Of a stretch of DNA of 64,000 nucleotides, positions 33,706-63,077 are shown in pieces. The stretch spans positions 2,325 to 66,324 of the forward strand of contig PEQZ01000001.1 in the NCBI GenBank assembly GCA_002928395.1, written 5' to 3'. How positions within the stretch are numbered: position 1 is the stretch's first letter; each line of letters starts with the position of its first letter. The translations under genes were made by a program, and so were the position numbers. The notes beneath the pieces were generated by a model. It had not been told where the DNA came from. It searched no databases and worked only from the letters and a program-made list of their open reading frames with translations. Source of the stretch: Hyphomicrobium sp. Lineage in GTDB: Bacteria; Pseudomonadota; Alphaproteobacteria; Rhizobiales; Hyphomicrobiaceae.

Positions 33706-33727
33706 CCGCCGCACGGCCAAACCGCGT

Positions 33728-46945: not shown

Positions 46946-46976
46946 GCCAGCGGCGAATGCAACGTGCGCCGCTGGC
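46946..46976 (-). terminator. Intercistronic hairpin after the TRAP binding-protein gene (attenuator/stabiliser type)
   Basis: On the minus strand: GCCAGCGGCG-cacgttgcatt-CGCCGCTGGC followed by TTTGG, a perfect 10-bp stem. It starts 9 nt after the dctP stop. Confidence 0.45.
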
Positions 46977-46984
46977 TTCGGTGG

Positions 46985-48082
46985 TCACTTCTTCTCGAGC
47001 GCGGAATTGCCGAGTTGCGAGTAGAGGTCGATGATCTTGGTCCAGTAAGGCACCACGGTCTTGGCGAAGTTCCGCTGGCTGTCGAGCACTTCCTTGAAGA
47101 ACGGGTCTTTGGCCGAGTACCGCTCGAGCACCACGTTGGTGGCGCGGACGAACTCGGGGAAGAAGTCCTTCGGCGTGTCGAGAATCTGCACGCCGTGCTT
47201 TTCACGCAGCTCGATCACGGCCTGGGCGTTGCGCCAGACGTTGAACGAGTACGTCTCGGTCATCGACGCGAGTGCGGCCGTCTTCAGGATTTCTTTCAGA
47301 TCAGGCGTCAGCTTGTTGTAAAAATCCTTGTTCCACAACAGCTCACCCACGTCCGTCGACTGGTGCAGGCCCTGCAAATAGTAGTACTTCCAGACCGTGT
47401 GCAGGCCGAGGTTGCGGTCGTCCGCGGGGCCGATCCATTCGGCCGCGTCTATGGTGCCGCGTTGGGCGGCGGGCACGATTTCACCGCCGGGCATGGCGAC
47501 CGCGGCTACGCCCATCTCCTTGAAGATCTCGCCAGTGATGCCGGGCGGCGAACGATACTTGAACGTCTTGAAGTCGGCGACGTCCTTGATCGGGCGCTTG
47601 AACCAGCCAAGCGGATCTGGGCCCATGGGCTGCACCATCTGCGGCACGACTTTGAGCTTCAGAATGTCGGTATAGAATTTCTCGAGCAGTTGATTGCCGC
47701 CGCCTTCCAACAGCCATGCGACGTGCGAGATCTGATCGAGGCCCGCGCCGGCGCCCGCCATCGGGTTGGAGAACAGGCCTGCGGTCGGGTTCTTGCCCGA
47801 CCAGTAGTGCGTCCAGGCATAGCCGCCCTCGACGATGCCCTTGTCAACGGCGTCGAGGATTTCAAACGCCGGCACGATCGCGCCGTCCGGCAGCACCTCG
47901 ATTTTCAATCGTCCGTTCGACATCTTGTCGACCCGGTCGGCGTAGCGCTTCAAAAGCTCGAAATAGATGCTGGCCGAGGGCACCGCGGTCTGCATCCGCA
48001 CCTTCTGCTGCGCCCAAGCGTTCATCGAGCCCGCGCCCACGGCGAGCGCCATCAAGCAGATACTGAGCAGTCGTCGTAACAT
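46985..48082 (-). CDS. TRAP transporter substrate-binding protein (DctP family; candidate IseK)
   Basis: 365 aa. The signal peptide is MLRRLLSICLMALAVGAGSMNAWA, followed by a DctP-type fold pattern. Confidence 0.85.
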   Translation of the reverse strand: MLRRLLSICLMALAVGAGSMNAWAQQKVRMQTAVPSASIYFELLKRYADRVDKMSNGRLKIEVLPDGAIVPAFEILDAVDKGIVEGGYAWTHYWSGKNPTAGLFSNPMAGAGAGLDQISHVAWLLEGGGNQLLEKFYTDILKLKVVPQMVQPMGPDPLGWFKRPIKDVADFKTFKYRSPPGITGEIFKEMGVAAVAMPGGEIVPAAQRGTIDAAEWIGPADDRNLGLHTVWKYYYLQGLHQSTDVGELLWNKDFYNKLTPDLKEILKTAALASMTETYSFNVWRNAQAVIELREKHGVQILDTPKDFFPEFVRATNVVLERYSAKDPFFKEVLDSQRNFAKTVVPYWTKIIDLYSQLGNSALEKK

Positions 48083-48182
48083 GGCAGTCTCCTCCTTCGG
48101 TCTTGTCGACGTTTTCGTCCCATATTCGGTTGACCGGCCATTCGGCCTTCATGTTGCCCGGTCTTTGCCAGACCGTCGAAGC

Positions 48183-49832
48183 CTATCCTGTTGCAGTGCT
48201 TTGGACCCTCCCAGAAATCGGACCGGTGTCCGCCGCATCGGCTTGGATCATGTCGGCGGCCTTTTCGCCGATCATGATCGCCGGCAGGTTGGTGTTGCCA
48301 GAGACGAGCGTCGGCATGATCGAGCAGTCGGCCACCCACAGCGCCTCGATCCCGCGCACGCGGAGGCGGGAATCAACCACCGCTGCCTTGTCGGCGCCCA
48401 TCCTGCAGGTCCCTGACGGATGGAAGATCGTCGCACCATGGTCTCGCGCAAACTGCAAGAGTGCGTCATCGGTGACGGCGCCAGCGCCGGGCAGCATCTC
48501 CTCCGCCACATAATTCGAGAGCGGCGCCGTGCCCGCCAGCCGCCGCGCGAACGCAATGGCGGCGACGACACAACGCCGGTCGCCTTCGGTGCTGAGGTAG
48601 TTTGCCTGGATGCGCGGCGCCGCAGTTGGATCGCTGCTCGAGAGGGTGATACGGCCGCGGCTTTCTGGCCGCAATTGGCAGACCGAGAGCGTGAAGCCCG
48701 AGTAGGGATGCGGCTTGGCGCCAGCCATATCCGCGCTGAGGGTCGCAATATGGAACTGGATATCCGGCGTCTTCGAGTGACGAAGAACGCGCGTGAACAG
48801 TCCGCCCTGATTGATGCCGATCGCCAAGGGGCCTGCCCGCGCAAGCAGCCATTGGGCGCCGATCTTGATCTGGCCGAATACCGAATTCAACTCGTCGTTC
48901 GTGGTGATCGGTTTCGCGCATTTGTAGATCAGCCGGATCTGGAGGTGATCCTGGAGGTTCTCACCGACGTGGGCGCGGTCCACGATGACGGCGATGCCGT
49001 GCCTTTTCAACTCCTCCGCTGGCCCGATGCCGGACAGCATCAAGAGCTGCGGTGATTGCAGCGCACCGGCCGACAGCACGACGCCGAGACGCGCCGTCAG
49101 CCGGCGGTCCGTGCCATCGTGACGGAACTCGACGCCAGTTGCGCGCCGGCCCTGCAATAGAACGCGGCTCGCGTGTGCGCCTGTCAGAACTGCGAGGTTC
49201 TGGCGGCCGCGTGCGGGCTTCAGATAGGCCTTCGCTGCACTGACCCGCAGTCCGTTGCGCGTTGTCAGCTGGTAATAGCCGACACCCTCCTGTCGTGCGC
49301 CGTTGAAGTCCGCGGTGCGCGGCACGCCCAGGCGCCCCGCCGCTTCGATCACCGCCTCGATCAACTCGTGCTTGCGTGGAATGCTGCTGACGCTCACGGG
49401 GCCCCACTGCCCGTGATGTTGCGAACCGGTGAATTCGGAATTGGTCTCGAGCTTGAGGAAGTACGGGAACACGTCGTTCCAGCCCCAGCCCGCGCAATCG
49501 AGATCGCGCCAACGGTCGTAGTCCTCCCGCTGGCCCCTGATTGCGATCAGTCCGTTGATCGAGCTCGATCCACCGAGGACGCGACCACGCGGCCAATAGA
49601 TCTGGCGGCCGCCCATCTCGGGTTCTGGCTCGGTCTTGAATCTCCAGTTGACCCGCTCGTCCCACATCGTCTTGCCGTAGCCGAGCGGCAGGTGGATCCA
49701 AGGATTGCTGTCTTTGGGGCCGGATTCGAGCAGCGCGACGGTGAAACGCCCGTTCTCCGAAAGGCGGCTCGCGACCGCGCATCCAGACGAACCGGCGCCG
49801 ACGACTATGAAATCGTAGCTCGTCTTGTTCAT
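48183..49832 (-). CDS. GMC family FAD oxidoreductase (choline-dehydrogenase-like; candidate isethionate dehydrogenase IseJ)
   Basis: 549 aa. The N-terminal motif is YDFIVVGAGSSGCAVASRLSE, with GMC signatures (GGSSSINGL..., ...HPSGTCRMG...). It is the first gene of an operon with the TRAP genes and is divergent from an IclR regulator gene. Confidence 0.85.
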   Translation of the reverse strand: MNKTSYDFIVVGAGSSGCAVASRLSENGRFTVALLESGPKDSNPWIHLPLGYGKTMWDERVNWRFKTEPEPEMGGRQIYWPRGRVLGGSSSINGLIAIRGQREDYDRWRDLDCAGWGWNDVFPYFLKLETNSEFTGSQHHGQWGPVSVSSIPRKHELIEAVIEAAGRLGVPRTADFNGARQEGVGYYQLTTRNGLRVSAAKAYLKPARGRQNLAVLTGAHASRVLLQGRRATGVEFRHDGTDRRLTARLGVVLSAGALQSPQLLMLSGIGPAEELKRHGIAVIVDRAHVGENLQDHLQIRLIYKCAKPITTNDELNSVFGQIKIGAQWLLARAGPLAIGINQGGLFTRVLRHSKTPDIQFHIATLSADMAGAKPHPYSGFTLSVCQLRPESRGRITLSSSDPTAAPRIQANYLSTEGDRRCVVAAIAFARRLAGTAPLSNYVAEEMLPGAGAVTDDALLQFARDHGATIFHPSGTCRMGADKAAVVDSRLRVRGIEALWVADCSIMPTLVSGNTNLPAIMIGEKAADMIQADAADTGPISGRVQSTATG

Positions 49833-49928
49833 GCGGAGTCACTCCCGGCGCCCGTTCTTGTGGACGGGTCGCAGCACGAACATCCTCCAATGCTGGACGG
49901 GCCGTCAACATGAAAGTGAAACAGTATA

Positions 49929-49943
49929 TTCCGTTCAACGGAA
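49929..49943. promoter_or_regulatory. Palindrome TTCCGTT-C-AACGGAA in the GMC/IclR divergent promoter region
   Basis: A perfect 7-bp inverted repeat with a 1-nt spacer, in the AT-rich 155-bp gap between 49832 and 49989. It is a candidate IclR operator. Confidence 0.3.
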
Positions 49944-49988
49944 ATGTTTTATAGTCTCAGCGGTCACCTCGAACCTCCGAGCAGTCCG

Positions 49989-50804
49989 ATGTTGCAACGC
50001 CGCACAGGAACACCAAGGCGCGGGGCCACGACGCAGCGCACGATCGCCGGCCAGCAGTGCCGGCCGGTGTTGACACGTGCGCTCGCTGTGATCGAGGCCA
50101 TCGCGGGCGTCAAGCAACCGGTCGCGCTCGTCGAACTGGCCCGGCGGGTGGCGCTGCCGCCGGCGACCGTCTATCGCCTTTGCCAGCGGCTCGAGGACGA
50201 CGGCTACATCGTACGCGAAGGCGGGTCGCGGAGGTACGCGCTCGGCGCCCGGCTGATGCGGCTTGGGATCGCGATCATGCGTGCTGGCGGAGCATCGAGC
50301 GTGCGGCACGATATTCTGAAGGCTCTCGTCGAGCGCATCGGCGAAACGTGCAATCTGACGATGCTGGCGGGCAGCGACGTGCTCTATCTCGATCGCGTCG
50401 AGACGCGTTGGCCGTTGCGATTGAGCTTGGAGCCGGGGTCGCGTGTGCCCCTCCATTGCACGGCCAGCGGCAAGCTGTTCCTCGCGTTTTTGCCAAAGCC
50501 GGCGCGCAACACTATTCTCGATGTGCTGCCCATGCCGGCGCATACGCCAAGGTCGCTCACTGATCGGCTCAGCCTCGAGCGAGATCTCAATCGCATCGCG
50601 CGGCGCGGCTACAGCACGGACGACGAGGAGTTCCTGGCCGGGCTGATCGCCGTCGCCGTGCCTGTGACCGACAGCTCGGGCACGGTCATCGCGGCTGTCG
50701 CCTGCCATGCACCCGTTGCCCGGTTGAATCTCAAATCCGCGGTTGCCGCAGTTCCGCTGCTCACCGCGGCCGCGGCCAAAATCGCGGCGACATTTGTCGA
50801 CTGA
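49989..50804 (+). CDS. IclR family transcriptional regulator (candidate IseR)
   Basis: 271 aa from the ATG at 49989. The HTH is LTRALAVIEAIAGVKQPVALVELARRVALPPATVYRLCQRLEDDGYIV, followed by a C-terminal IclR effector domain (...CTASGKLFLAFLP...GYSTDDEEFLAGLIAVAVPV). Confidence 0.8.
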   Translation: MLQRRTGTPRRGATTQRTIAGQQCRPVLTRALAVIEAIAGVKQPVALVELARRVALPPATVYRLCQRLEDDGYIVREGGSRRYALGARLMRLGIAIMRAGGASSVRHDILKALVERIGETCNLTMLAGSDVLYLDRVETRWPLRLSLEPGSRVPLHCTASGKLFLAFLPKPARNTILDVLPMPAHTPRSLTDRLSLERDLNRIARRGYSTDDEEFLAGLIAVAVPVTDSSGTVIAAVACHAPVARLNLKSAVAAVPLLTAAAAKIAATFVD

Positions 50805-51080
50805 ACCCTATCTCACTTGCCGCTTGCAGACGGCTCCGGCCCTCGATGGGAGTGCCGGCCGATGCCCGTGCGGGTCGGAGTGCCGGGAGCTTGTCCCACG
50901 GATTTGACTTGCAAGTCTCAAAAGGAGATGTTTCAGGATTGTCGCGACAGGTTCCATTCATTCGGCCACCCCCGCGGGGCCTTTGTTTGGCTTCGTTCAT
51001 TTCGGTGCTCGCCGCACATTCGGCCCATTTACTGGCCGGTAACCGGTCGTCACTGCCAGAAGTGGATCGCGCGCGGGGGA

Positions 51081-52217
51081 ATGATGAAGCGGATCGCCAT
51101 CTTTTTCGATGGAACTTGGAACGACGTCGACGGCGACGCGCCACTCACGAATGTCGCAAAGCTGCACAAGGCTCTCAGATCTGCCGACGGCAACCGTTTC
51201 AGGCAAGTCGGGCACTACGTCGAGGGTATCGCCTCGTCCATGGGCGAGATCGCGCAATTCCTGAAGGGCGCCGTCGGCTACGGCGTCGAGGAGCGGATCC
51301 AGCGGGCCTATGGGCTTCTGGCGGCGGACTACGAGCCGAGCGACGAGATCCACATCTTCGGCTTCTCGCGGGGCGCATACCAGTCTCGGAGTCTCGCGTC
51401 GCTCATCACCTTGTTCGGGGTGCCGAAGCACGGCGCAGGCTTCGATCCTGCCAAGGCGTGGGCGCTCTACCGAACGCGCGAGAGCCGGCGCAACGACACC
51501 GACGTCGCCGCGTTGCGGGCTGCGGCGCACTACCCGGTTCGCATCAAGTGCGTGGGCGTCTGGGATACGGTCGGCAATCTGGGCAATCCGTTCGTTTCTG
51601 GGTTCGTGTCGCGAAAGTTCGCATTCCACGACGTTCGCCTCACGGATCAGATCGAGACCGGACTGCACGCGCTTTCGATCGACGACGTGCGCGGTCCCTT
51701 CCGGCCGTCGCTATGGACGCTGCCCGAGGGGCAAATGCTCGCGCCCAATCAGCACATCGAACAGGTCTGGTTCGCTGGCAGTCATGCCGATGTCGGTGGC
51801 GGCTTTGCCGAAACGGCGCTATCCGACATCGCGCTTCGCTGGATGGCGGAACGGGCTACGGCGACCACGGGTATTGCCTTCGACGACGCGCTGATCGCAA
51901 GGACGACGCACCCTGATCCGCTCGGCCCGCAGCATTCGTCTGCAACAGGGTCCATATTCTTTTGGAGCGGGCTGTTCCCGTTCATCCGGCTGATCAGGCA
52001 GGCCAAGGATGCAATCCCGCCGCTGCGGCGCATGCTGATCGGCTCGTGGCGGTCTGGCACGCTGCCGCGCGGACAGGTTTCGATCAACGAGCGAATTCAC
52101 GAAAGCGTCGAGCAGCGGTTCGGTGCGCGGATCATCGAACTGGCTGCCGGCCGGGCCCGCACGAAGACCTACCAGCCGGGCAATCTGATTCCGGTCATCA
52201 AGAAAAAGACGACGTAA
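51081..52217 (+). CDS. DUF2235 domain protein (T6SS Tle1-like alpha/beta-hydrolase family)
   Basis: 378 aa from the ATG at 51081. It has MKRIAIFFDGTWND, a GxSxG nucleophile elbow (IFGFSRGAYQSRSL), and VWDTVG and FAGSHADVGGG motifs, all hallmarks of DUF2235 as I recall them. Confidence 0.75.
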   Translation: MMKRIAIFFDGTWNDVDGDAPLTNVAKLHKALRSADGNRFRQVGHYVEGIASSMGEIAQFLKGAVGYGVEERIQRAYGLLAADYEPSDEIHIFGFSRGAYQSRSLASLITLFGVPKHGAGFDPAKAWALYRTRESRRNDTDVAALRAAAHYPVRIKCVGVWDTVGNLGNPFVSGFVSRKFAFHDVRLTDQIETGLHALSIDDVRGPFRPSLWTLPEGQMLAPNQHIEQVWFAGSHADVGGGFAETALSDIALRWMAERATATTGIAFDDALIARTTHPDPLGPQHSSATGSIFFWSGLFPFIRLIRQAKDAIPPLRRMLIGSWRSGTLPRGQVSINERIHESVEQRFGARIIELAAGRARTKTYQPGNLIPVIKKKTT

Positions 52218-52413: not shown

Positions 52414-53349
52414 TCAAACGCCCCATACCTCCGCGAGCTGCCGAGCTGCGGACTTGAGCATCGGGACGCGGTCACGCGCGCCTGGCACCGACAGCCTTGG
52501 TGACGGACCATGCAAAGCCAATGCGCCGAGGGCGCGACCGCTACGGTCCAGCACCGGCACGGCGGCCCCAACGATGCCCACGGTGAACTCCTCGTTGTTG
52601 ATCGCGTATCCCTCCTTGCGAATCCGCTCGAGCTCTTGACAGAGCGCGGCCGCCGACGTGATCGTCGTTGGCGTGAATGCGGCAAGTTTCGTCGACCGGA
52701 TCAGCGCCTCGCGCACATCCTGCTCGAGCCATGCGAGCAGCACTTTGCCGCCTGATGTACAGTAGGATGGAACGCGGCTTCCTGCCGTCAGGTGCACGCG
52801 CAGCGACCACTCGGCCTCGATGCGGTCGAGATAGACGAACTCGAGCCCGTCCAGGACGCCGATGTTGCAGGTTTCCCCTACCTTGCTGACGGTCGCCGCG
52901 AGAATTGCTCGTACTGGCGCACCCTGATTGCGGGTCAGCATTGCTGCCAGCGCCAACCGATTGAGCCGCGGTCCGATCGCATACCGGTCGCGCGAGGGGT
53001 CGCAAACGAGGAGCCCCGCGGCGCTCAACTGTTGCAGCACCCGATGTATGGTCTGGCGCGGAAGGCGGAGTTCGGCCGTCAGGTCCGGGAGTCCAACCGG
53101 CGTCCGATGGCCGACGATGGCCTCCAGCACCACCAGCGACTTCTCGAAGGCCGACAATCGATCGTTGGAGACCGGCAATGGGATATCGGTGTCCGGCGCC
53201 AGGGTTGGCTTTGCCGCGCGCGCCCGGCTCTGCTGCTCCAGCGCCCGGTGTGATCTCCGGGCTTTGAGCGGGTGTGTCGTGTGCGATGGTTTTGGCACTG
53301 GCGGCTGCTCCGTCTCGAATGCCCTACCGCTCACGCGGATCGGGCGCAC
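52414..53349 (-). CDS. IclR family transcriptional regulator (start uncertain)
   Basis: The HTH is FEKSLVVLEAIVGHRTPVGLPDLTAELRLPRQTIHRVLQQLSAAGLLV, followed by an IclR effector domain. The track ORF runs to a TTG at 53460 through an AT-rich palindromic promoter region. In-frame GTG (53349, 53334) or TTG (53178) starts are more plausible. Confidence 0.75.
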   Translation of the reverse strand: MRPIRVSGRAFETEQPPVPKPSHTTHPLKARRSHRALEQQSRARAAKPTLAPDTDIPLPVSNDRLSAFEKSLVVLEAIVGHRTPVGLPDLTAELRLPRQTIHRVLQQLSAAGLLVCDPSRDRYAIGPRLNRLALAAMLTRNQGAPVRAILAATVSKVGETCNIGVLDGLEFVYLDRIEAEWSLRVHLTAGSRVPSYCTSGGKVLLAWLEQDVREALIRSTKLAAFTPTTITSAAALCQELERIRKEGYAINNEEFTVGIVGAAVPVLDRSGRALGALALHGPSPRLSVPGARDRVPMLKSAARQLAEVWGV

Positions 53350-53416
53350 ATTCGATGCCCGATTCCGACGGCGTCCCCGCCGAGACGTCTTGACAATCGG
53401 AGCGGGTGCTGAAATT

Positions 53417-53435
53417 TTAGGACATGGCGTCCTAA
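53417..53435. promoter_or_regulatory. Inverted repeat TTAGGAC-N5-GTCCTAA between the IclR gene and the TTT transporter operon
   Basis: A perfect 7-bp inverted repeat in the AT-rich divergent region (...gaaatTTTAGGACatggcGTCCTAAttatc...). It is a candidate IclR operator. Confidence 0.35.
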
Positions 53436-53514
53436 TTATCAAACACAACATCGCCAACAAAAAAACAATTCAGTGCACTTGCGGCTCGAAGCCGTGTCCC
53501 GGGAGGAAGTTGCC

Positions 53515-54483
53515 GTGTTCGAACGTCACATCGCCTGCGTCGTCGCGGGGCTCGCTGCCGCCGCATTCGTGAGCACTTCGGTACTTGTTCCGCTGGCTCG
53601 GGCGGACGAAAAATATCCTGCGCGCGCGGTCGAATTCATCGTGCCCTGGGGTCCGGGCGGCGGCGCCGATCAGCTGGCGCGGCTCGTCGGCAAGCTCGCC
53701 GAGCCGATGCTCGGGCAAGGATTGCCGGTGGTCAATGTTGCTGGCGGAACCGGCGCAACGGGCATGGCCAAGCTTCTGGCCGCGCCGGCCGACGGCTATG
53801 CCATGGCGGTCTACATCGCCGACAGCCATGCCTTGCTCGCTGGCAACAATCCGCGCTGGCAATTGTCCGACGTGGCGCCCGTCGCCGTCATGCTACAAGG
53901 CCCGTCATTCATTTTCGTGCCCGAAAACAGCCCATATAAAACCTGGGCCGACTTCGAGAAGGCCGCCAAGGAAAAGCCCGGCACGTTGAAAGTGGCGACG
54001 CTCGGGTTCGGCAGCGTCGACGATTTCTCGCTGAAGAGCCTCGATGCCAAGGGCGTCAAGGTCGTGCAGGTCCCGTTCGCCAAGCCGAGTGAGCGCTATG
54101 TCTCGATCCTCGGCGGGCACGCAGACGCTCTTTACGAGCAGGCCGGCGATGTAGCGTCCTTCATCGCGGGCAAGCAGATGCGGCCGTTGATGATCTTCGG
54201 CAAGACGCGGCATCCCTCCTTCAAGGACACGCCGACGTCGCACGAACTCGGCTACAACGTCGCGCTCCCGCAGTTCCGCTCGATCGTGGTGCGGGCAGGA
54301 ACGCCGACCGACAAGATCAGCGCCCTGTCCACGACGCTCGCGAAGATCGCGGCAACGCCGGAGTACAAGGCGTTTCTCGCGGAGCAGTTTGCCGATCCGG
54401 ACAGCTTCATCGACGCCAGCAAGGCAGGCGCGTACCTCGATGCCCAGCTTGTTGAAATGAAGGCGCTGGCGGCATCGAAATGA
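53515..54483 (+). CDS. Tripartite tricarboxylate transporter substrate-binding protein (TctC/Bug family)
   Basis: I prefer the GTG at 53515 (GGAGGA upstream); the track ORF starts at 53473. The signal peptide is VFERHIACVVAGLAAAAFVSTSVLVPLARA. The Bug-family core is YPARAVEFIVPWGPGGGADQLARL...VVNVAGGTGATG. Confidence 0.85.
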   Translation: MFERHIACVVAGLAAAAFVSTSVLVPLARADEKYPARAVEFIVPWGPGGGADQLARLVGKLAEPMLGQGLPVVNVAGGTGATGMAKLLAAPADGYAMAVYIADSHALLAGNNPRWQLSDVAPVAVMLQGPSFIFVPENSPYKTWADFEKAAKEKPGTLKVATLGFGSVDDFSLKSLDAKGVKVVQVPFAKPSERYVSILGGHADALYEQAGDVASFIAGKQMRPLMIFGKTRHPSFKDTPTSHELGYNVALPQFRSIVVRAGTPTDKISALSTTLAKIAATPEYKAFLAEQFADPDSFIDASKAGAYLDAQLVEMKALAASK

Positions 54484-55040
54484 ACCCGTACGGCAAGCTC
54501 ATCGCCTGCGTGCCTTATCTATTCGTGCTGGCCGCCGCAGCGGCGCTGTGGCGGCTCACCTTCGACGTGACCTTCGACGCTCAACCCGGCCAACTGTCGC
54601 CGACGTTCTGGCCGCGGCTGGCTATCGGTCTCATGGCGATTTCCGCTCTGGTCGAGATGGCGCGCTTGGCACTGACCAAGAACGGCGTTTCGACCATTGC
54701 CGGGATCGGGCGGACCCTCGAGCGGTCCGGCGACGACGACACGGACGACGGTGATCTTCAACGCAGGCCGCTGCTCCTCATCGGCGGCGTGGCTCTCACG
54801 CTTGGGTTCGCGGGGCTCGTCACGACGCTCGGGTTCCTGCCGTCGACCTTCATCTTCCTGGTCGTCTTCATGTACCTGGGCGGCTACCGAAATCACGCGG
54901 TGATCTGGCTCTCGGCCGTGATCGGCACCCTCGTGTTCGCCATCGTTTTCCTGAAGGTCGTCTACGTGTCGCTGCCGCGAGGCACCGCGCCGTTCGATCA
55001 GGTGACGCAAGCGGTTGTCGATCTCTTGGCGAAATTCTGA
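54480..55040 (+). CDS. Tripartite tricarboxylate transporter TctB family small membrane protein
   Basis: 186 aa with 4 TM segments. Its ATGA overlaps the tctC stop, in the canonical tctCBA order. Confidence 0.75.
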   Translation: MNPYGKLIACVPYLFVLAAAAALWRLTFDVTFDAQPGQLSPTFWPRLAIGLMAISALVEMARLALTKNGVSTIAGIGRTLERSGDDDTDDGDLQRRPLLLIGGVALTLGFAGLVTTLGFLPSTFIFLVVFMYLGGYRNHAVIWLSAVIGTLVFAIVFLKVVYVSLPRGTAPFDQVTQAVVDLLAKF

Positions 55041-55070
55041 GCCGGCTCAAGCGGCATAGAAGGTTCTAGA

Positions 55071-56579
55071 ATGCTCGACATCCTCGCCCAGCTCGGCACC
55101 GGCTTTCTGCACTGCTTCGAGCCGCTCAATCTGTTGATGATCTTGGTCGGCATAGTCGTCGGCTTGCTGGTCGGCGTGCTGCCGGGATTGACGCTCGTCA
55201 TGGGCGTGATCCTGGTGCTGCCCTTCACCTACAAGATGCCGATCACGCCATCGATCGTCCTGTTGACGGCGATGTACGTGTCCGGCACCTACGGCGGCGC
55301 CTTCACGTCGATCCTGTTCCGCATCCCAGGCGAGCCGATCCATGTTCCGCTGCTGTGGGACGGCTATGCCATGGCGCGCCAGGGCAAGCCAGCCAAGGCG
55401 TTGGGCTGGACGCTGGTGGCGGCACTCGGCGGCGGCCTGCTGTCATGGGTCATATTGGTATTGCTGACCAAGCCCGTTGCCGACTTCGCCCTCAAGTTTT
55501 CGACGCCGGAATACTTCGCCATCGTGGCCTTCGGCCTCGCCAGCGTCATCGCGCTCGGCAAGGGTGGCCTGGCGAACGCCTTCATAAGCCTATCCCTCGG
55601 CCTGCTCGTCGCCTCCGTCGGCACGGATGCGACCTATGGCGCCTATCGGTTCACGCTCGGCCTGCCGCTGCTGGCCGATGGCATTGAATTTCTCGTGGTC
55701 ATGGTCGGTGCCTACGGCGTCGGCGAGGTCTTGACGCGGCTCGAAACCGGGTTCTCCGGCAAGCCGATCGAGGGTGTTGCCACCGCCCAGACCGAGCTGC
55801 CGACGCTCGCGGAAATCGGGGCGCTCAAGGGCATGTTCCTGCGCTCCGCCATCCTCGGCAATATCATCGGAATCGTTCCGGGCGCCGGGGCGACGATTGC
55901 GTCGTTCGTCAGTTACGGCGTCGAATCGCAGTTCGGCCGCCACCGCGCCAAGATGGGGTCCGGCATTCCGGAGGGCATCGTCGCGCCGCAATGCGCGGCG
56001 ACTGCATCGGTTGGCGGCGCTCTCATTCCGTTGCTGGCGCTCGGACTGCCCGGCAGCGGTGCAACCGCAGTCATCCTCGGCGCCTTCATGCTGCACGGCA
56101 TCCAACCGGGCCCGCAGGTGCTGATCACCTCCGGCCCGCTCATCTACACCATATTCGCTTCACTCCTGATCGGCACGCTCCTGATGTGCGCGCTCGGCTA
56201 CTTCGCCATTCGCCCGCTGGTCAAGATCCTCGACTTCCCCGAGGCCGTGGTGTCCGCCTTCGTGATGATCCTCTGCTTCGTCGGCGCGCTGTCGATCCGC
56301 GGCAACATCACCGATCTCTACCTGATGATCGGGTTCGGGTTGATCGGTTACCTGTTCGAGCGCCTGAAATTTGCGATCGCGCCGATGGTGCTCGGCGTGA
56401 TCCTCGGACCGATCGCCGAAGAAAGCTTCATGAATGCGATGATCAGTTTCGGCAACGACTGGACCGTGTTCTTCACGCGACCTATCTCGGGGTCGATCAT
56501 GGCGCTGACGATCCTCACCCTGCTGCTGCCGGTGATCGCATCCTTGAGGGATCGATCGAAGGCTGCGGTACCGCTCTGA
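55071..56579 (+). CDS. Tripartite tricarboxylate transporter TctA family large permease
   Basis: 502 aa and polytopic, with the TctA-type pattern (GLLVGVLPGLTLVMGVILVLPF...IVPGAGATIASFVSYG...). Confidence 0.9.
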   Translation: MLDILAQLGTGFLHCFEPLNLLMILVGIVVGLLVGVLPGLTLVMGVILVLPFTYKMPITPSIVLLTAMYVSGTYGGAFTSILFRIPGEPIHVPLLWDGYAMARQGKPAKALGWTLVAALGGGLLSWVILVLLTKPVADFALKFSTPEYFAIVAFGLASVIALGKGGLANAFISLSLGLLVASVGTDATYGAYRFTLGLPLLADGIEFLVVMVGAYGVGEVLTRLETGFSGKPIEGVATAQTELPTLAEIGALKGMFLRSAILGNIIGIVPGAGATIASFVSYGVESQFGRHRAKMGSGIPEGIVAPQCAATASVGGALIPLLALGLPGSGATAVILGAFMLHGIQPGPQVLITSGPLIYTIFASLLIGTLLMCALGYFAIRPLVKILDFPEAVVSAFVMILCFVGALSIRGNITDLYLMIGFGLIGYLFERLKFAIAPMVLGVILGPIAEESFMNAMISFGNDWTVFFTRPISGSIMALTILTLLLPVIASLRDRSKAAVPL

Positions 56580-56656
56580 CAGCACCGAAACGAACAAAGT
56601 CCAATGGCGCCCTTGCGCACGCGCGCAGACCCCGCGAACGAGAGTGATCCCTAGCT

Positions 56657-58099
56657 ATGACAGACGCAGCCCGCCGCCTCGCCAACTCAGGCACCGATGC
56701 CGCCCCGATCATCGCAGCGACGATTGCGCGCGCGCGTGCGGCCATGGCGACCTACGCAACCGAGATCGCGACGCTTGGTCAGCCCCGCATCGACGAAGCC
56801 GTCACCGCGCTCGCGTGGTCCATCTACAAACCGGACAATGCGCGGCGTTTGGCCGAGATCGCGGTCGAGGTGACGGGGCTCGGCAATGTCGAGAGCAAGG
56901 TCATCAAGAACACCCGCAAGACCTTCGGCACACTCCGCGACCTGCTTCGTGCCAAGTCGACCGGCATCATCGAGGAGCTGCCCGAGCGGGGCCTCGTCAA
57001 ATGGGCCAAGCCCGTCGGCGTGGTCGCGGCCATCACGCCATCGACCAATCCGTCCGCGACGCCGGTCAACAAGGCGATGATGGCCTTGAAGGGCGGTAAC
57101 GCCATCGTCATAGCGCCGCCACCGTCGGCCTGGGCCGCGTCGGAACCCACCGTCGCCGTGATGCGTGCCGAGCTTGCCCGCATCGGTCTGCCGCCCGATC
57201 TCGTGCAGATCCTGCCCAACCCGATCACGCGCGAGACCACCAACGAGCTGATGCTGCAAGCCGATCTCGTCGTCTGCACCGGCAGCCAGAAGAACGTGCG
57301 CCAGGCCTATTCGTCGGGTAAGCCGGCGCTCGGCGTCGGTCTCGGGAATGTGCCGGTCGTCATCGATGCCTCGGCCGACCTCGATTTAGCCGCCCACAAA
57401 ATCATGTTGTCGAAGACCTTCGACAACGCGACATCGTGCTCGTCGGAGAACGCCATCGTCATCGTCGACAGCGTCTATGATGCCGCGATTGCCGCTCTCG
57501 CGCGTGCGGGCGGCTATCTCGCCACGGCCGAAGAGCGACAGCGCATCGTCGAGCGGCTGTGGGTTGGCAGCCAGCTCAACCGCAACGTCATCGCGCAGGG
57601 GCCGGACGCGCTGGTCCGCGTGTTCGATCTCGCGCCGGCATCGACCGGCTGCAAATTCGTGATGGCCGAGGAATCAGGTATCGGCGCCGCGCATCCCTTG
57701 TCGGGCGAAAAGCTCTCGCTCGTGCTCGCCATCTATCGGGCGCGGGATTTCACCGACGCCAAGCGCATCGTCAAAGACATTCTCGCCTACCAGGGTCGCG
57801 GCCATTCCTGCGGCATCCACACCGCCGACCTCGAACACGCCCGCGAACTCGCCCGCGACATCGACGTGGTGCGCGTGCTCGTCAACCAGCCGCACACCTT
57901 CGGCAACGGCGGCGGCTTCGATAACGGCCTGCCGTTCACACTGACCATGGGCTGCGGCAGCTGGCAGGCCAACTCGTTCTCGGACAATCTCAACTGGCGG
58001 CTGTTCGTGAACATCACCCACCTTGTGACGACCATCCCCGAGGACAAACCCTCCGAGGACGCGCTGTTCGGTGCGTTCTGGCAGAAGTACGGAAAGTAG
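56657..58099 (+). CDS. CoA-acylating aldehyde dehydrogenase (EutE/AdhE-N type; candidate sulfoacetaldehyde dehydrogenase (acylating), SauS-like)
   Basis: 480 aa. The pattern AITPSTNPSATPVNKAMMALKGGNAIV with the catalytic Cys context FDNATSCSSENAIV is the acylating ALDH layout. It lies directly upstream of a SucCD-like ligase and an Xsc-like gene. Confidence 0.8.
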   Translation: MTDAARRLANSGTDAAPIIAATIARARAAMATYATEIATLGQPRIDEAVTALAWSIYKPDNARRLAEIAVEVTGLGNVESKVIKNTRKTFGTLRDLLRAKSTGIIEELPERGLVKWAKPVGVVAAITPSTNPSATPVNKAMMALKGGNAIVIAPPPSAWAASEPTVAVMRAELARIGLPPDLVQILPNPITRETTNELMLQADLVVCTGSQKNVRQAYSSGKPALGVGLGNVPVVIDASADLDLAAHKIMLSKTFDNATSCSSENAIVIVDSVYDAAIAALARAGGYLATAEERQRIVERLWVGSQLNRNVIAQGPDALVRVFDLAPASTGCKFVMAEESGIGAAHPLSGEKLSLVLAIYRARDFTDAKRIVKDILAYQGRGHSCGIHTADLEHARELARDIDVVRVLVNQPHTFGNGGGFDNGLPFTLTMGCGSWQANSFSDNLNWRLFVNITHLVTTIPEDKPSEDALFGAFWQKYGK

Positions 58100-58101
58100 C
58101 G

Positions 58102-59241
58102 ATGAACTTCGAAGAACACGCCGCAAAACCGCTCATGGCATTGAACGGCATCACCGTGCCGCCGAGCCGGCTGGCGCTCGATCCGGTCGAAGCCGAAGCC
58201 GCCGCCGCCGCGATCGGGCCGTGCGTGGTCAAGGCCCAGGTGCCGGCGGGCAAGCGCGGCAAGGCCGGCGGCATCAAGCTCGCCGCCAATCCCGCCGAGG
58301 CACGCCGACACGCGGAAGCGATCATCGGCCTCGTCATCGGCGGCTGGCCCGTCGAGAAGGTGCTGATCGAAGCGCAAACGCCCATCGCACGCGAACTCTA
58401 CGCGGCAATCGTCAACGACAGCGCTTCCAAAGGCCCGATGCTGTTGTTCTCGCCGATGGGCGGCATGGACGTGGAAGAAGCCGCCGCCGCCGATCCCGCC
58501 GCCATGCGCCGCCTCCCGATCGCCATCGAGCATGGCCTCGGCGCCGCGACCGCACACAAGGCGATATCCGGCCTCGGCCTCGAAGCCGTCGCGCCGGCCC
58601 TCGTCGACGTGCTCCTCAACCTCTACCGCGCCTACCGTTCCCTCGATGCCGAGCTTATCGAAATCAATCCGCTGGTCGTGACCCCCGACAACCGCGTCAT
58701 CGCGCTCGACTGCAAGCTCACCATCGACGACAGCGCCGCATCCCGCCAGGTCCAAGCCGCAGCACTCGCCGCCCCCGTGCAGCAGACCGTGCTCGAAGCC
58801 AAGGCGGCCGAAGCCGGCCTCAAATACATCGAGCTCGGCGGCGAGGTCGGCGTGCTGGCCAATGGCGCGGGGCTCACCATGACCACCATGGACGTCATCG
58901 CCCACTACGGCGGCCAGCCGGCCAACTTCCTCGAAATCGGCGGCGAGGCATACACCAAGTCCAAGGTCGCCCTTTCGATTCTGCTCGAGAACCCCAACGT
59001 GAAGAGCCTGCTCGTCAACTTCTGCGGCGCCTTCGCGCGCACGGATGTGATGGCTGAAGGCGTCATCAACGCGTGGGAGGATCTGAAGCCTGAAATCCCG
59101 ATCTTCTTTTCGATCCACGGCACCGGCGCCGACGCCGCCGTCGCGCTCGTCAAGTCGCGCCTCGGCATCGAGCCGTTCGATCTCATGGATGATGCCGTGA
59201 AGGCGGCCGTCGCCGCAGCAGCCGGGAGGACCCAGGCATGA
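58102..59241 (+). CDS. ADP-forming acyl-CoA synthetase beta subunit (SucC-like ATP-grasp)
   Basis: 379 aa: MNFEEHAAKPLMALNGITVP...VVKAQVPAGKRGKAGGIKLA...EINPL...GVLANGAGLTMTTMD. The gap from the ALDH gene is 2 nt, and it overlaps the alpha-subunit gene by 4 nt. Confidence 0.85.
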   Translation: MNFEEHAAKPLMALNGITVPPSRLALDPVEAEAAAAAIGPCVVKAQVPAGKRGKAGGIKLAANPAEARRHAEAIIGLVIGGWPVEKVLIEAQTPIARELYAAIVNDSASKGPMLLFSPMGGMDVEEAAAADPAAMRRLPIAIEHGLGAATAHKAISGLGLEAVAPALVDVLLNLYRAYRSLDAELIEINPLVVTPDNRVIALDCKLTIDDSAASRQVQAAALAAPVQQTVLEAKAAEAGLKYIELGGEVGVLANGAGLTMTTMDVIAHYGGQPANFLEIGGEAYTKSKVALSILLENPNVKSLLVNFCGAFARTDVMAEGVINAWEDLKPEIPIFFSIHGTGADAAVALVKSRLGIEPFDLMDDAVKAAVAAAAGRTQA

Positions 59242-60143
59242 TCCCACGCAAAGCCGATCGCATCCTCATCCAAGGCATCACCGGCAAGCAGGGCTCGTTC
59301 TGGTCGAAGGCCATGCAGGACTACGGCTCGACCATCGTCGCCGGCGTCAATCCTGCGAAGGCCGGCTCGGAGCACCTCGGCGTGCCGGTGTTCGCAAGCG
59401 CGCGCGAGGCCGCGAAGTCCACGCCATTCGATATCGCGTGCATGTTCATCCCGCCTATGCTCGCCAAGGTCGCCGCCATCGATGCCTGCGAAGCCGGTGC
59501 GAAACTTCTCGTTTGCCTCACCGAGCACATCCCCGCCCACGACGTCATGGAAATGCACGTCGCCGCGCGCGCCACCGGCACCCGCATCGTCGGCCCCAAC
59601 ACGGCGGGTCTCGTCACGGTGGGTGAATGCTTCATCGGCATCATGCCGGCCTTCAACGACCGCGTGTTCCGTCCTGGCCACGTCGGCGTCATCTCGCGCT
59701 CGGGCAGCCTCGGCACGCTGGTCAGCCTCAACCTCACCCAGTCCGGGCTCGGGCAATCCGTGTTCTATGGGGTCGGCGGTGATCCCATGATCGGCACCAA
59801 CACGGCGGACGCACTTCGCATCCTCGACGGGGACGCCGGCACCCACGCCATCGTGCTCTGCGGCGAGATCGGCGGCACTGCCGAGGAGGAAGCCGCCGAC
59901 TACGCCCGCTCCATGACAAAGCCCGTAGTCGCCTTCCTCGCAGGCCGCCAATCGCCACCTGACAAGAAAATGGGTCACGCCGGTGCCATCGTGTCCGGGG
60001 GCAAAGGCGACTACGCGTCGAAGCGGAAGGCACTCGAAGATGCGGGCGTCACCGTCGCCGACCTGCCGAGCCAGATCCCGGCCCTCATCGCCGCGCGGCT
60101 CACCGCAACGGCTTCGAACGACGCACCTCGAAGCCCACGCTAG
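59238..60143 (+). CDS. ADP-forming acyl-CoA synthetase alpha subunit (SucD-like)
   Basis: 301 aa with [24 protein letters not shown] and the phosphohistidine loop [11 protein letters not shown]. Confidence 0.85.
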
Positions 60144-60220
60144 AGTCGCTCGAGCGATCCAATGGGCGTTTCGATCCGAATACTCGTTGCCTGCCACGAA
60201 TTCAAAAAAGGAACCGCCGC

Positions 60221-61999
60221 ATGCGCATGACCACCGAGGAAGCCTTCGTCAAAGTGCTGCAGATGCATGGCATCCAGCATGCCTTCGGTATCATCGGCTC
60301 GGCCATGATGCCGATTTCGGATTTGTTCCCCAAGGCGGGCATCAAGTTCTGGGACTGCGCGCACGAGTGCTCGGCCGGCATGATCGCTGACGGCTACACG
60401 CGTGCGACCGGCAAGATGAGCATGGCCATTGCCCAGAACGGCCCCGGCATCACCAACTTCGTGACGCCGATCAAAACCGCCTACTGGAACCACACGCCGC
60501 TGTTGCTGGTCACGCCGCAGGCCGCCAATCGCACCATCGGCCAGGGCGGCTTCCAGGAAATGAAGCAGATGGCGCTGTTTGAGGATTGCGTGGCCTACCA
60601 GGAGGAGGTGCGCGATCCCTCGCGTATCGCCGAGGTCTTGAACCGTGTCATCGAGCGCGCGTGGCGCTTCTCGGCACCGGCCCAGATCAACGTACCCCGC
60701 GACTATTGGACTCAGATCGTCGATATCGAACTTCCGCAGCGCGTGCAGTTCGAACGGCCGGCTGGCGGCGACGACGCGATCACCGAAGCCGCTCGCCTGC
60801 TGTCGGGCGCCAAGTTCCCCGTCATCCTCAATGGGGCGGGCGTCGTCATCGGCGGTGCCATCGATGTCAGCCGCAAGCTCGCCGAACGGCTCGATGCGCC
60901 GGTCTGCTGCGGCTATCAGCACAATGACGCCTTCCCCGGTTCGCATCCGCTCGCCTGCGGCCCGCTCGGCTACAATGGCTCGAAAGCGGCGATGGAGTTG
61001 ATCGCCAAGGCCGACGTGGTGCTCGCACTCGGCACACGGCTCAACCCGTTTTCGACGCTGCCCGGCTACGGCATCGACTACTGGCCGAAAAATGCCAAGA
61101 TCATCCAGGTCGACATCAACCCGGATCGCATCGGTCTCACCAAGAAAGTCTCGGTCGGCATCTGCGGCGACGCCAAGAAGGTCGCCGATGGCATCCTCGC
61201 ACGATTGACGCCGAATGCGGGCGACGCCGGCCGCGCCGAGCGAAAGGCGCTCATCCATCAGACCAAGTCGGCCTGGCGGCAAACCCTCGCTTCCATGGAC
61301 CACGAGGACGACGATCCAGGCACCACCTGGAACGAGCGCGCGCGCAAGCGTGAACCCGAGCGCATGTCGCCGCGCATGGCCTGGCGCGCGATCCAGGATG
61401 CGCTACCGCGGAATGCGATCATCTCGAGCGACATCGGCAACAACTGTGCCATCGGCAACGCCTACCCGAGCTTCGAGGAGGGCAGGAAATACTTGGCGCC
61501 CGGTCTATTCGGTCCGTGCGGCTACGGCTTCCCGTCCATTCTCGGCGCCAAGATCGGCCAGCCCGATGTGCCGTGTGTCGGCTTCGCGGGCGATGGCGCG
61601 TTCGGCATATCAATGAACGAGATGACGGCCTGCGGCCGCAACGATTGGCCCGGCATCACCATGGTCATCTTCCGGAACTACCAGTGGGGCGCCGAAAAGC
61701 GCAACACCACGCTATGGTACAGCGACAACTTCGTCGGCACGGAGCTCAATCTCGGTGTCGAGTACGCGAAGGTCGCCGAAGGCTGTGGTGTCAAGGGCGT
61801 GCAGGTCCGCTCGATGGAGAGCCTCACGTCCACACTCCGCTCGGCGATCGACGCGCAGATGACGAACAACACCACGACCTTCATCGAGGTGGTGTTGAAC
61901 CAGGAGTTGGGTGAGCCGTTCCGCCGCGACGCCATGAAAGCCCCTGTCGTCGTCGCCGGCATCGACCCTGCCGACATGCGGCCGCAACAACCGGCGTGA
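60221..61999 (+). CDS. xsc: Sulfoacetaldehyde acetyltransferase (ThDP-dependent, Xsc)
   Basis: 592 aa. The N-terminus MRMTTEEAFVKVLQMHGIQHAFGIIGSAMMPISDLFPKAGIKFWDCAHE matches the characteristic Xsc N-terminus as I remember it. The ThDP motif is GFAGDGAFGISMNEMT...N. A phosphotransacylase gene lies adjacent. Confidence 0.8.
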   Translation: MRMTTEEAFVKVLQMHGIQHAFGIIGSAMMPISDLFPKAGIKFWDCAHECSAGMIADGYTRATGKMSMAIAQNGPGITNFVTPIKTAYWNHTPLLLVTPQAANRTIGQGGFQEMKQMALFEDCVAYQEEVRDPSRIAEVLNRVIERAWRFSAPAQINVPRDYWTQIVDIELPQRVQFERPAGGDDAITEAARLLSGAKFPVILNGAGVVIGGAIDVSRKLAERLDAPVCCGYQHNDAFPGSHPLACGPLGYNGSKAAMELIAKADVVLALGTRLNPFSTLPGYGIDYWPKNAKIIQVDINPDRIGLTKKVSVGICGDAKKVADGILARLTPNAGDAGRAERKALIHQTKSAWRQTLASMDHEDDDPGTTWNERARKREPERMSPRMAWRAIQDALPRNAIISSDIGNNCAIGNAYPSFEEGRKYLAPGLFGPCGYGFPSILGAKIGQPDVPCVGFAGDGAFGISMNEMTACGRNDWPGITMVIFRNYQWGAEKRNTTLWYSDNFVGTELNLGVEYAKVAEGCGVKGVQVRSMESLTSTLRSAIDAQMTNNTTTFIEVVLNQELGEPFRRDAMKAPVVVAGIDPADMRPQQPA

Positions 62000-62144
62000 A
62001 CTGATCGCGGCAGTGGCTACCCCCTGTCATGTCCGTGTTCATGCCGGACGAGCCTTTCCTCGATCTCTCCCTGGCCGGGCTCGACCCGGCCATCCAGACT
62101 TCCCATCGCGCACGGTCCGCTGCGTCTGATCGACGTCAAGCGCT

Positions 62145-63077
62145 TCACCCCGCGTGCCGCATGTCCCAGTTGCGCATGGCGGCGGCGAGTGCCGCAGATG
62201 CCAGGCGCGCGGCAGCGGGATCGGAGCGGCTGGTCAGCAGGATCGGCACCTTCGCACCGAGCACCACGCCACCCATGCACGCGCCCATGTACTGGGTCAT
62301 CATTTTCATCAGCGCGTTGCCGACGACGATCTCGGGCATGATGAGGATGTCGGCCGCGCCTGCCACCCGCGAGACCACGCCTTTCACCTTCACCGCTTCC
62401 GGCGAGACGCAGAGGTCGAACGCCAGAGGGCCGTCGACGTCGGCGTCCTGAACGGCGTCCTTGGCCCACCTGGTGAGTTCCACCGCCTCGGTCGTCGACG
62501 GGATCTTGGGCGAGAGCACCTCGGTCGCCGACAGCAGCGCGACCTTGGGTCGTGCGTTGCCGAGTGCGTGCGCGAGTGCAATCGCGTTGGCAATGATGAC
62601 CTTTTTCAGTTCGACGTCGGGGGCTGGATTGAGCGCGCCGTCGGTGATGATCAGCGAGCCCGCGCGCCCCGGTACGGTCAGGTGCGAGATGTGAGTGAGC
62701 GGTTTGCCGACGCGCAAGCCGGCTTCCTTGTTGAGCACGGCCTTCATGAACACGTCGGTGTGGAGGTGTCCTTTCATCAGCGCTTCCGCGCGGCCGCGAC
62801 CGGTGGCCAAGGCGCCAGCCTGGGCCGCTGCCTCCTCGCCATCCGCCTCGATCACCTCGAAGGTCGCGATGTCCCAGCCGATACGTTCCGCCACTCGCCG
62901 CATCTCGGAAAGATTGCCGACCAGCACCGGCTCGATGATGCCGGCAACGGTCGCGTCACGTGCGCTTTCCAGCACCACGTCGTTGACGGCGTTGACAACC
63001 ATCGTGCGCACGGGTTTTGAGCCGCGAGCCGCCGCCAACAGCGGCTGCGGGCATTCGAATATCTGGCCTCCCAGCAT
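62145..63077 (-). CDS. pta: Phosphate acetyl/butyryl transferase family protein (Pta, short form)
   Basis: 310 aa from the ATG at 63077 (GGAG 8 nt upstream; alternative ATG at 63092). The PTA_PTB pattern is present: ...ALMKGHLHTDVFMKAVL...ITDGALNPAPD...GPLAFDLCVSPEA...ADILIMPEIVVGNALMK. It is convergent with xsc. Confidence 0.8.
   Translation of the reverse strand: MLGGQIFECPQPLLAAARGSKPVRTMVVNAVNDVVLESARDATVAGIIEPVLVGNLSEMRRVAERIGWDIATFEVIEADGEEAAAQAGALATGRGRAEALMKGHLHTDVFMKAVLNKEAGLRVGKPLTHISHLTVPGRAGSLIITDGALNPAPDVELKKVIIANAIALAHALGNARPKVALLSATEVLSPKIPSTTEAVELTRWAKDAVQDADVDGPLAFDLCVSPEAVKVKGVVSRVAGAADILIMPEIVVGNALMKMMTQYMGACMGGVVLGAKVPILLTSRSDPAAARLASAALAAAMRNWDMRHAG

Follow-up and report, generated by a model that had tools for sequence, protein, structure and literature searches.

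The 64,000-nucleotide stretch of DNA analysed here (the window; Hyphomicrobium sp., contig PEQZ01000001.1 of assembly GCA_002928395.1) carries an operon encoding a tripartite tricarboxylate transporter (TTT), a CoA-acylating aldehyde dehydrogenase, a two-subunit CoA ligase resembling succinyl-CoA synthetase (SucCD) and a thiamine diphosphate (ThDP)-dependent enzyme, with a divergent IclR-family regulator gene on one side and a convergent phosphate acetyltransferase gene (pta) on the other. Judged from its sequences and genomic context, the locus can be regarded with good confidence as a chromosomal operon for the catabolism of sulfoacetate in an alphaproteobacterium that is probably related to the Hyphomicrobiaceae. 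The type of pathway, which combines TTT import with the acylating sulfoacetaldehyde dehydrogenase SauS and a SucCD-type ligase of the ADP-forming kind, is already established, and the window provides a further example of it and no new concept. What the present analysis adds is a widespread clade of proteobacterial and actinobacterial ligases, linked to the sulfoacetaldehyde acetyltransferase Xsc, which carries an invariant and distinctive acid-site signature and has only a distant relationship to what is apparently the lineage of the characterised enzymes.

In the proposed pathway, sulfoacetate would bind to the TctC-type protein in the periplasm and enter the cell through TctBA, the SucCD-type ligase would convert it to sulfoacetyl-CoA via a phosphohistidine, with ATP going to ADP and Pi as the predicted products, and SauS would reduce sulfoacetyl-CoA with NAD(P)H to sulfoacetaldehyde. 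Xsc would then convert sulfoacetaldehyde and phosphate into acetyl phosphate and sulfite, and Pta would turn acetyl phosphate into acetyl-CoA, with the divergent IclR protein probably regulating the operon at a palindromic site. Since the operon is headed by an uptake system and ends with xsc, with pta next to it in convergent orientation, the layout suggests a catabolic rather than an ATP-yielding oxidative direction. The individual steps have biochemical precedents in SauCD, SauS and SauZ of Bilophila wadsworthia (PMC10413351) and, as summarised in that paper, in SauS, Xsc and Pta of Cupriavidus necator.

The enzymes acting downstream of the ligase in this scheme were examined with curated family models. 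The aldehyde dehydrogenase (56657-58099), for which a comparison with SauS (EC 1.2.1.81) had been proposed in the original prediction, passed the NCBIfam equivalog model NF047625 (AcylSulfactDhSauS) over its full length with 729.9 bits against a cut-off of 600. The ThDP enzyme scored 948.1 bits on the Xsc equivalog TIGR03457 (EC 2.3.3.15; cut-off 676.4) and 1039.6 bits on NF005713. Acetolactate synthase was rejected as its identity, the best such model giving 294.3 bits against a cut-off of 538, and the earlier call of Xsc is thus upheld. The short-form Pta scored 298 bits on the phosphate acetyltransferase part of NCBIfam PRK08190 (cut-off 282) and 277.7 bits on PRK11890, under the cut-off of 413; it is predicted to be a phosphate acetyltransferase by the curated model, of either acetyl or butyryl preference.

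The ligase pair is set apart from canonical SucCD both by its model scores and by its acid-binding site. The SucC-like (beta) subunit scored 346.9 bits on the SucC equivalog, below the cut-off of 370, and the SucD-like (alpha) subunit 323.6 bits on the SucD equivalog, below the cut-off of 336; neither subunit drew a SauC or SauD model in the NCBIfam scan. The identity of bona fide SucCD was rejected on these scores together with the replacement of both succinate C4-binding elements, and that of malate-CoA ligase (MtkAB) on 278.7 bits with the MtkA model NF010647, whose cut-off is 604. Searches of the PDB yielded 3ufx_B as the best match (262 bits) and no entry for SauCD or SauZ. Alignment to the solved succinyl-CoA synthetases (SCS) showed no loss of the ATP-grasp domain or of the MGHAGA phosphohistidine loop; the pair has the architecture of SauCD, namely two SucCD-type subunits with an intact phosphohistidine loop and an ATP-grasp domain.

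In the structure of pig SCS with succinate (5CAE), the C4 carboxylate of succinate is held by the backbone of the GIV motif of the beta subunit and by the hydroxyl of Tyr167 of the alpha subunit (PMC11489063). In the window pair, NFCGAFARTD of beta stands where SCS has N-I-F-G-G-I-[TV]-R, and SRSGSLGTL of alpha where SCS has SRSGTLTYE, with loss of the Tyr that binds the C4 of succinate; in addition, DIGGGA of beta is changed to EIGGEAYT and GPNCPG of alpha to GPNTAG. The beta motif NFCGAFAR[TC]D is present in all the 81 sequences compared (the window and 80 related loci) and the alpha motif SRSGSLG[TV]L in all the 70 alpha subunits recovered. Such a site is expected of an enzyme that keeps the chemistry of SCS while binding a different, shorter acid, for which sulfoacetate is the predicted candidate. 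Public names of the clade members (P0012, P0015, P0022, P0074, P0111 and others) include succinate-CoA ligase, acetate-CoA ligase family protein and ATP-grasp domain protein, and the member from Candidatus Filomicrobium marinum is named malate-CoA ligase; such mis-annotation (succinate-, malate- or acetate-CoA ligase) is routine for the clade and could be corrected with the help of the acid-site signature.

Conservation of the arrangement was examined in a survey of one genome per GTDB species, in which at least 513 relatives of the ligase were identified and the best 80 retrieved (beta subunits 57-78% identical). The nine proteins of the window were mapped onto these 80 loci, 35 of which have full 10-kb flanks. 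The triad of aldehyde dehydrogenase, SucC-like and SucD-like genes is adjacent in 73 of the 80 loci, and in the full-flank set sauS adjoins the ligase genes, with both subunits present, in 35/35. Xsc (at least 70% identity) lies within 10 kb in 26 of these 35 loci, a TTT transporter is found in 26/35 and Pta within 10 kb in only 5. Conservation of the triad, often in the vicinity of xsc, had been named in the original prediction as a test of the proposal; at these frequencies the arrangement is no chance juxtaposition. The host organisms include Hyphomicrobiaceae, Xanthobacteraceae (Pseudolabrys, Afipia, Bradyrhizobium), Geminicoccaceae, Rhodospirillales, Paracoccaceae, Afifella, Pararhizobium haloflavum, Betaproteobacteria and an actinomycete metagenome-assembled genome (MAG). 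Cultured organisms with a ligase pair of this type include Candidatus Filomicrobium marinum, Pararhizobium haloflavum XC0140, Afifella sp. IM 167, Rhodobium orientis and Prauserella endophytica. Two loci with proteobacterial-type sauS-sauCD clusters are labelled Leptospira interrogans (L039, GC content 60%) and, in a MAG, Bacillaceae (L038, GC content 70%); their base composition suggests contamination or mis-binning.

Some of the related loci extend the genomic context of the ligase. In the cultured Gram-positive actinomycete Prauserella endophytica (L083, 4363-17131), pta, iclR, a SauS-like aldehyde dehydrogenase gene and a ligase with the GAFAR-type beta motif are followed by a SulP transporter gene and by molybdopterin, Fe-S and NrfD genes that look like those of the sulfite dehydrogenase SoeABC. 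In L009, the region downstream of xsc was searched for a gene of a sulfite exporter (TauE/SafE) or dehydrogenase, and none was found. Ligase pairs of sister lineages, with the GAFAR and SLGTL motifs, occur without sauS in two loci, one (L081, 3773-5841) in a cluster of IclR, major facilitator superfamily (MFS), HbpS, ligase and SDR genes and the other (L085, 8001-9994) in a taurine-type cluster with aminotransferase, GntR, TauE, molybdopterin/Fe-S (SoeABC-like) and ThDP enzyme genes. The latter cluster raises the question of the role of a CoA ligase beside Xsc without SauS. On these sequences, the GAFAR motif marks a broader sulfonate-associated superclade, and the assignment of the window ligase to sulfoacetate therefore rests on the combination of the motif with SauS and Xsc.

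All the three TTT components (TctC, TctB and TctA) are encoded inside the operon, as in the SauXYZ system of B. wadsworthia, and the predicted substrate of the transporter is sulfoacetate. The N-terminus of TctC is signal-peptide-like, and of the TTT binding proteins with a solved structure none exceeds about 30% identity to TctC. Orthologues of the window TctC (at least 50% identity) flank sauS-sauCD in 16 loci, and other loci carry clearly different TctC subtypes, 29-46% identical to that of the window. The presence of several TctC subtypes beside sauSCD indicates that more than one TTT lineage was recruited.

The phylogenetic position of the ligase was examined relative to the ligases of anaerobes. 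The clade of anaerobe SauCD/SqwKL was recognised by gene context, as a proxy for the characterised Bilophila enzyme E5Y8P8/E5Y8P7. Among representatives at 50% identity, the window clade is surrounded in a neighbour-joining tree by other lineages with the GAFAR motif. The motif FG[TL][IV]ARAD is found in a neighbouring group, a search with which led to Moorella, Clostridia, Dehalobacterium, Spirochaetes and anaerobe contigs. Three of its loci (L086, L091, L092) are clusters of Na/sulfate symporter, aldehyde dehydrogenase and ligase genes with sigma-54 activators, which match the SauI-SauS-SauCD arrangement published for sulfite and sulfate reducers, and a Spirochaete locus (L088) with KduI, RpiB, an aldehyde dehydrogenase, the ligase pair, a symporter and a GH31 glycosidase matches the sulfo-TK (transketolase) variant with SqwD-SqwKL. 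The window ligase shares 37-39% (beta) and 43% (alpha) identity with this proxy. In a neighbour-joining tree of 58 sequences (200 bootstrap replicates), the GAFAR and the anaerobe groups are joined, with canonical SucC outside, at 85.5%; both groups share, as derived residues, N-T-[AS]-G in place of N-C-P-G in alpha, E-x-G-G-x-x-Y in beta and the loss of alpha Tyr167.

The joint clade and the identities fit a sister lineage of the anaerobe clade, itself identified by context, and not membership of the same orthogroup. The most economical explanation, drawn from neighbour-joining trees and this context-identified clade, would be one ancient departure from succinyl-CoA synthetase to sulfo-acids, followed by a split between the anaerobe and the proteobacterial-actinobacterial ligases. 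It is a tentative suggestion, to which we give somewhat less than even weight, that the sulfo-acid CoA ligases derived from SucCD include a separate lineage, that of the window ligase, without a biochemically characterised member, with NFCGAFARTD and EIGGEAYT in beta and SRSGSLGTL and GPNTAG in alpha as its signature. As to the placement called for in the original prediction, the scores and the motifs set the pair apart from SucCD and MtkAB, and the 85.5% bootstrap value separates it from canonical SucC.

In B. wadsworthia, a single cluster encodes SauXYZ (a TTT system), SauS and SauCD, a sulfoacetate-CoA ligase of the ADP-forming kind; the binding protein SauZ binds sulfoacetate with a Kd of 0.13 uM by isothermal titration calorimetry (Liu et al. 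2023, PMC10413351). The window likewise has genes for TTT uptake, for a SucCD-type ligase of two subunits and for an acylating sulfoacetaldehyde dehydrogenase in one cluster, and both routes run via sulfoacetyl-CoA and sulfoacetaldehyde. They differ in that sulfoacetaldehyde in Bilophila undergoes reduction to isethionate by TauF, followed by cleavage by the glycyl-radical enzyme IseG, whereas the window carries Xsc and Pta; in that the window SauS is of the C. necator type (it passes NF047625), BwSauS being only 37% identical to CnSauS; and in that the window ligase falls in another clade than the anaerobe-type ligases, with unlike acid-site residues. The SauRSTU system of C. necator H16 shares with the window the sequence SauS, Xsc, Pta, the same type of SauS and the logic of an aerobic carbon source, and differs in its AMP-forming ligase SauT and MFS transporter SauU (Weinitschke et al. 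2010, as summarised in PMC10413351); no AMP-binding (PF00501) or MFS gene was found at 52.4-63.3 kb of the window. A third likeness is to a gammaproteobacterial sponge symbiont of the Arenicellales (MAG 'OTU3'), reported in 2025 with a sauSCD and TTT cluster and also with xsc and pta (PMC12625764). Its sauS-sauCD genes linked to TTT have essentially the architecture of the original prediction and were assigned by inference there too, but xsc and pta lie elsewhere in that genome and inside the locus in the window; the two were compared by description.

The original prediction had regarded the arrangement as a non-canonical, architecturally distinct variant with a ligase of a kind of which no biochemical characterisation was known to it, and as one of the few TTT systems to which a sulfonated substrate could be assigned. 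These claims of novelty are superseded, since SauCD was characterised biochemically and the binding of sulfoacetate by SauZ published in 2023 (PMC10413351), and sauSCD clusters with TTT have been published (PMC10413351; PMC12625764). In the first of these studies, 147 SauZ homologues (the SauZ group being UniRef50_Q165A0) were surveyed: SauS was found in nearly all and Xsc in most of the genomes, the alpha- and gammaproteobacterial clusters contained 'mostly' SauT, and the sulfite and sulfate reducers SauT or SauCD (PMC10413351). A review of 2026 gives SauCD, SqwKL and HpfYZ as known ADP-forming sulfo-acid CoA ligases. The systems SqwD/SqwKL and HpfX/HpfYZ resemble the window in pairing a SucCD fold with an acylating aldehyde dehydrogenase and in the remodelled GIV/Tyr167 site; SqwKL and HpfYZ differ in running in the ATP-yielding direction in fermenters. 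SucCD of E. coli, Thermus and mammals is like the window pair in its fold and in the organisation of its subunits, and has the ATP-grasp domain and the phosphohistidine loop in common with it. The window pair differs in its sub-cut-off scores, in the replacement of GIV, of Tyr167 of alpha and of the Cys-Pro of GPNCPG, and in its separate clade.

Several observations weigh against the sulfoacetate assignment. A sulfite exporter or dehydrogenase was looked for in the window and none was found. The beta subunit is no closer to the anaerobe-type ligases (37-39%) than to true SucC of Thermus and E. coli (38-40%), and the acid-site residues differ by clade, the window having GAFAR and Thr at the Tyr167 position where the anaerobe SauC/SqwK-like ligases have G[TL][IV]AR and Asn, and HpfYZ GIN and His. 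As the window TctC is one among several unrelated subtypes, the substrate of the transporter rests on context, and the GAFAR ligases without sauS imply that the motif alone is no proof of specificity for sulfoacetate. The sulfoacetate reading of the original prediction is retained on the SauS and Xsc equivalogs, the ligase scores under the SucCD and MtkA cut-offs, the remodelled acid site and the conserved triad.

The same evidence bears on the alternative functions. The ligase and the aldehyde dehydrogenase might act on another short sulfo- or dicarboxylate, such as 3-sulfopropanoate, malonate or acids derived from sulfolactate, with the proximity of xsc reflecting only a shared sulfonate regulon. 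The related SucCD-type ligases HpfYZ have diverged to 3-sulfopropanoate (PMC11489063), BwSauCD has side activities of 20% on 3-sulfopropanoate and 7% on malonate (PMC10413351), and GAFAR ligases occur without sauS in L081 and L085; yet the dehydrogenase scores above the SauS equivalog cut-off, the HpfY-type GIN signature is absent, and sulfoacetaldehyde is the sole known aldehyde of Xsc, whose gene is next in the operon and within 10 kb in 26/35 loci, which leaves another acid as an improbable substrate. It is still harder to credit that SauS and the ligase run oxidatively, in the manner of SqwD/SqwKL, taking sulfoacetaldehyde derived from isethionate or taurine to sulfoacetate for a gain of ATP and excretion of the product. 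The reactions are reversible, the oxidative direction is physiological in the sulfo-TK variant and an isethionate-type module (glucose-methanol-choline (GMC) oxidoreductase, tripartite ATP-independent periplasmic (TRAP) transporter and IclR) lies directly upstream. The operon is headed, however, by a binding-protein-dependent TTT uptake system and lacks an exporter, Xsc from this operon would be a competitor for the aldehyde, and acetyl-CoA would be far more profitable to a respiring organism.

That the pair forms a second succinyl-CoA synthetase of the ordinary kind, accompanied by an acylating dehydrogenase of the succinate-semialdehyde type and a TTT system importing a dicarboxylate, has very little probability. 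The public names (succinate-, malate- or acetate-CoA ligase) and SucC/SucD scores only slightly under the cut-offs speak for it, but both succinate C4-binding elements are replaced throughout the clade, the clade stands apart from canonical SucC, the dehydrogenase is SauS at the equivalog level and the pair is linked to xsc. Enzymes of the SCS family pass through an acyl-phosphate intermediate, and the SucCD-like enzyme could be imagined to work after Xsc on acetyl phosphate, in a Pta-like partial reaction or in ATP formation, instead of activating sulfoacetate; the scarcity of Pta within 10 kb (5/35 loci) and the GAFAR ligase of the taurine/xsc cluster without sauS (L085) would be in keeping with such a role. 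Against it, the linkage of the ligase to sauS (35/35) is tighter than that to xsc (26/35), the window has its own pta directly beside xsc, and the operon would be left without another source of sulfoacetyl-CoA for SauS, so that a role on acetyl phosphate is as barely credible as that of a second succinyl-CoA synthetase. Activation of sulfoacetate thus remains the preferred function of the ligase.

The gene set, the gene order, the gap of 2 nt between the genes of SauS and the SucC-like subunit and the 4-nt overlap of the two ligase genes, as given in the original prediction, all agree with the open reading frame (ORF) listing and the Pfam and NCBIfam scans; the coordinates are collected in the table. 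The remaining spacings are a 4-nt overlap of tctC and tctB, 30 nt between tctB and tctA, 77 nt between tctA and the dehydrogenase gene, 77 nt between the SucD-like gene and xsc, and 145 nt from the stop of xsc to the stop of pta. The range 53417-63077 of the original prediction contains the operon and pta, and the IclR gene itself lies upstream of it. The best start of tctC is GTG at 53515, with a ribosome-binding site GGGAGGAA that is conserved in L007 and L009, and pta starts at ATG 63077 with the ribosome-binding site GGGAGCGAAGGAC. A terminator scan of the interval between xsc and pta gave no canonical terminator; the interval contains a GC-rich hairpin, GGCCGGG-CTCGA-CCCGGCC, without a T-run.

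Table. Coordinates of the sulfoacetate locus and of the upstream isethionate-like module in the window
Feature	Position	Strand	Evidence
IclR-family regulator (candidate SauR)	52414-53460 (maximal ORF)	-	Pfam HTH_IclR and IclR_C
Candidate promoter/operator, IclR/tctC intergenic region	53390-53442	+	TTGACA box and palindrome
TctC-family TTT periplasmic substrate-binding protein (SauZ-like role)	53473/53515-54483	+	Pfam TctC, 85.7 bits
TctB-family TTT small membrane subunit	54480-55040	+	Pfam TctB, 59 bits
TctA-family TTT large membrane subunit	55071-56579	+	Pfam TctA, 425.5 bits
SauS, acylating sulfoacetaldehyde dehydrogenase (sulfoacetyl-CoA reductase)	56657-58099	+	NCBIfam equivalog NF047625
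SucC-like beta (ATP-grasp) subunit, predicted SauC-like	58102-59241	+	Pfam ATP-grasp_2 and Ligase_CoA
SucD-like alpha (CoA-binding, phosphohistidine) subunit, predicted SauD-like	59238-60143	+	Pfam CoA_binding and Ligase_CoA
Xsc, ThDP-dependent sulfoacetaldehyde acetyltransferase	60221-61999	+	TIGR03457 equivalog
Short-form Pta (PTA_PTB), convergent with xsc	62145-63077	-	Pfam PTA_PTB (PF01515), 134.8 bits
TRAP DctM	44955-46364	-	Family-level match
TRAP DctQ	46264-46851	-	Family-level match
TRAP DctP	46985-48082	-	Family-level match
GMC (choline-dehydrogenase-like) oxidoreductase	48183-49832	-	Family-level match
IclR regulator, divergent, of the isethionate-like module	49944-50804	+	Family-level match

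The likely start of the iclR gene is internal to its maximal ORF, at GTG 53298 or TTG 53178. Homologues of the regulator, 50-77% identical, are found divergent upstream of the operon in L001, L002, L005, L007-L009 and other loci. Position 53417 is the first base of a perfect intergenic palindrome, TTAGGAC-N5-GTCCTAA (53417-53435), which is preceded by the TTGACA box at 53390-53395 and followed by TTATCAAAC; the window holds a single match to it, where 0.04 would be expected. When L007 and L009, the two closest loci, were aligned, the block TTGACAA...TAGGACAnnGnGTC...TTATCA is kept, with partial conservation of the palindrome there, and exact searches for the palindrome across the 80 related loci gave no match. 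The palindrome is a candidate IclR operator, through which the divergent regulator probably controls the operon.

Upstream of the sulfoacetate locus, the module at 44955-50804 resembles, in family-level matches, the isethionate genes iseJKLM/iseR of Ruegeria pomeroyi; if this reading is true, a single Xsc would be fed from isethionate as well as from sulfoacetate. Between the two IclR regulators lies a gene (50817-52217) with a Tle1-like/DUF2235 hydrolase domain of the type VI secretion system (233 bits), without an obvious link to either module. Genes of the methionine-salvage type at 29351-35375, encoding a class II aldolase (MtnB-like), an IF-2B family protein (MtnA-like) and a PNP_UDP_1 phosphorylase (MTAP-like), are unrelated to the operon. 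The remainder of the window consists of ordinary housekeeping genes of a chromosome (mnmA, lgt, prs, L25, pth, ychF, kup and the methionine-salvage genes); the GC content is 63%.

Sulfoacetate arises in the breakdown of sulfoquinovose and taurine, so that the enzymes for its removal belong to the global cycle of sulfonate sulfur. The abundance of the GAFAR clade in Alphaproteobacteria, Betaproteobacteria and actinomycetes fits awkwardly with the published argument that links aerobes to AMP-forming activation. If the separate ligase lineage suggested above is real, sulfoacetate may commonly be activated in these groups by this lineage instead of the AMP-forming SauT, which would run counter to the published reasoning that AMP-forming activation is preferred by aerobes, and hundreds of public genomes would mislabel the corresponding ligase genes. 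The lineage would also represent an ancient divergence from the SauCD/SqwKL lineage of the anaerobes, in which the acid pocket was remodelled in a different way.

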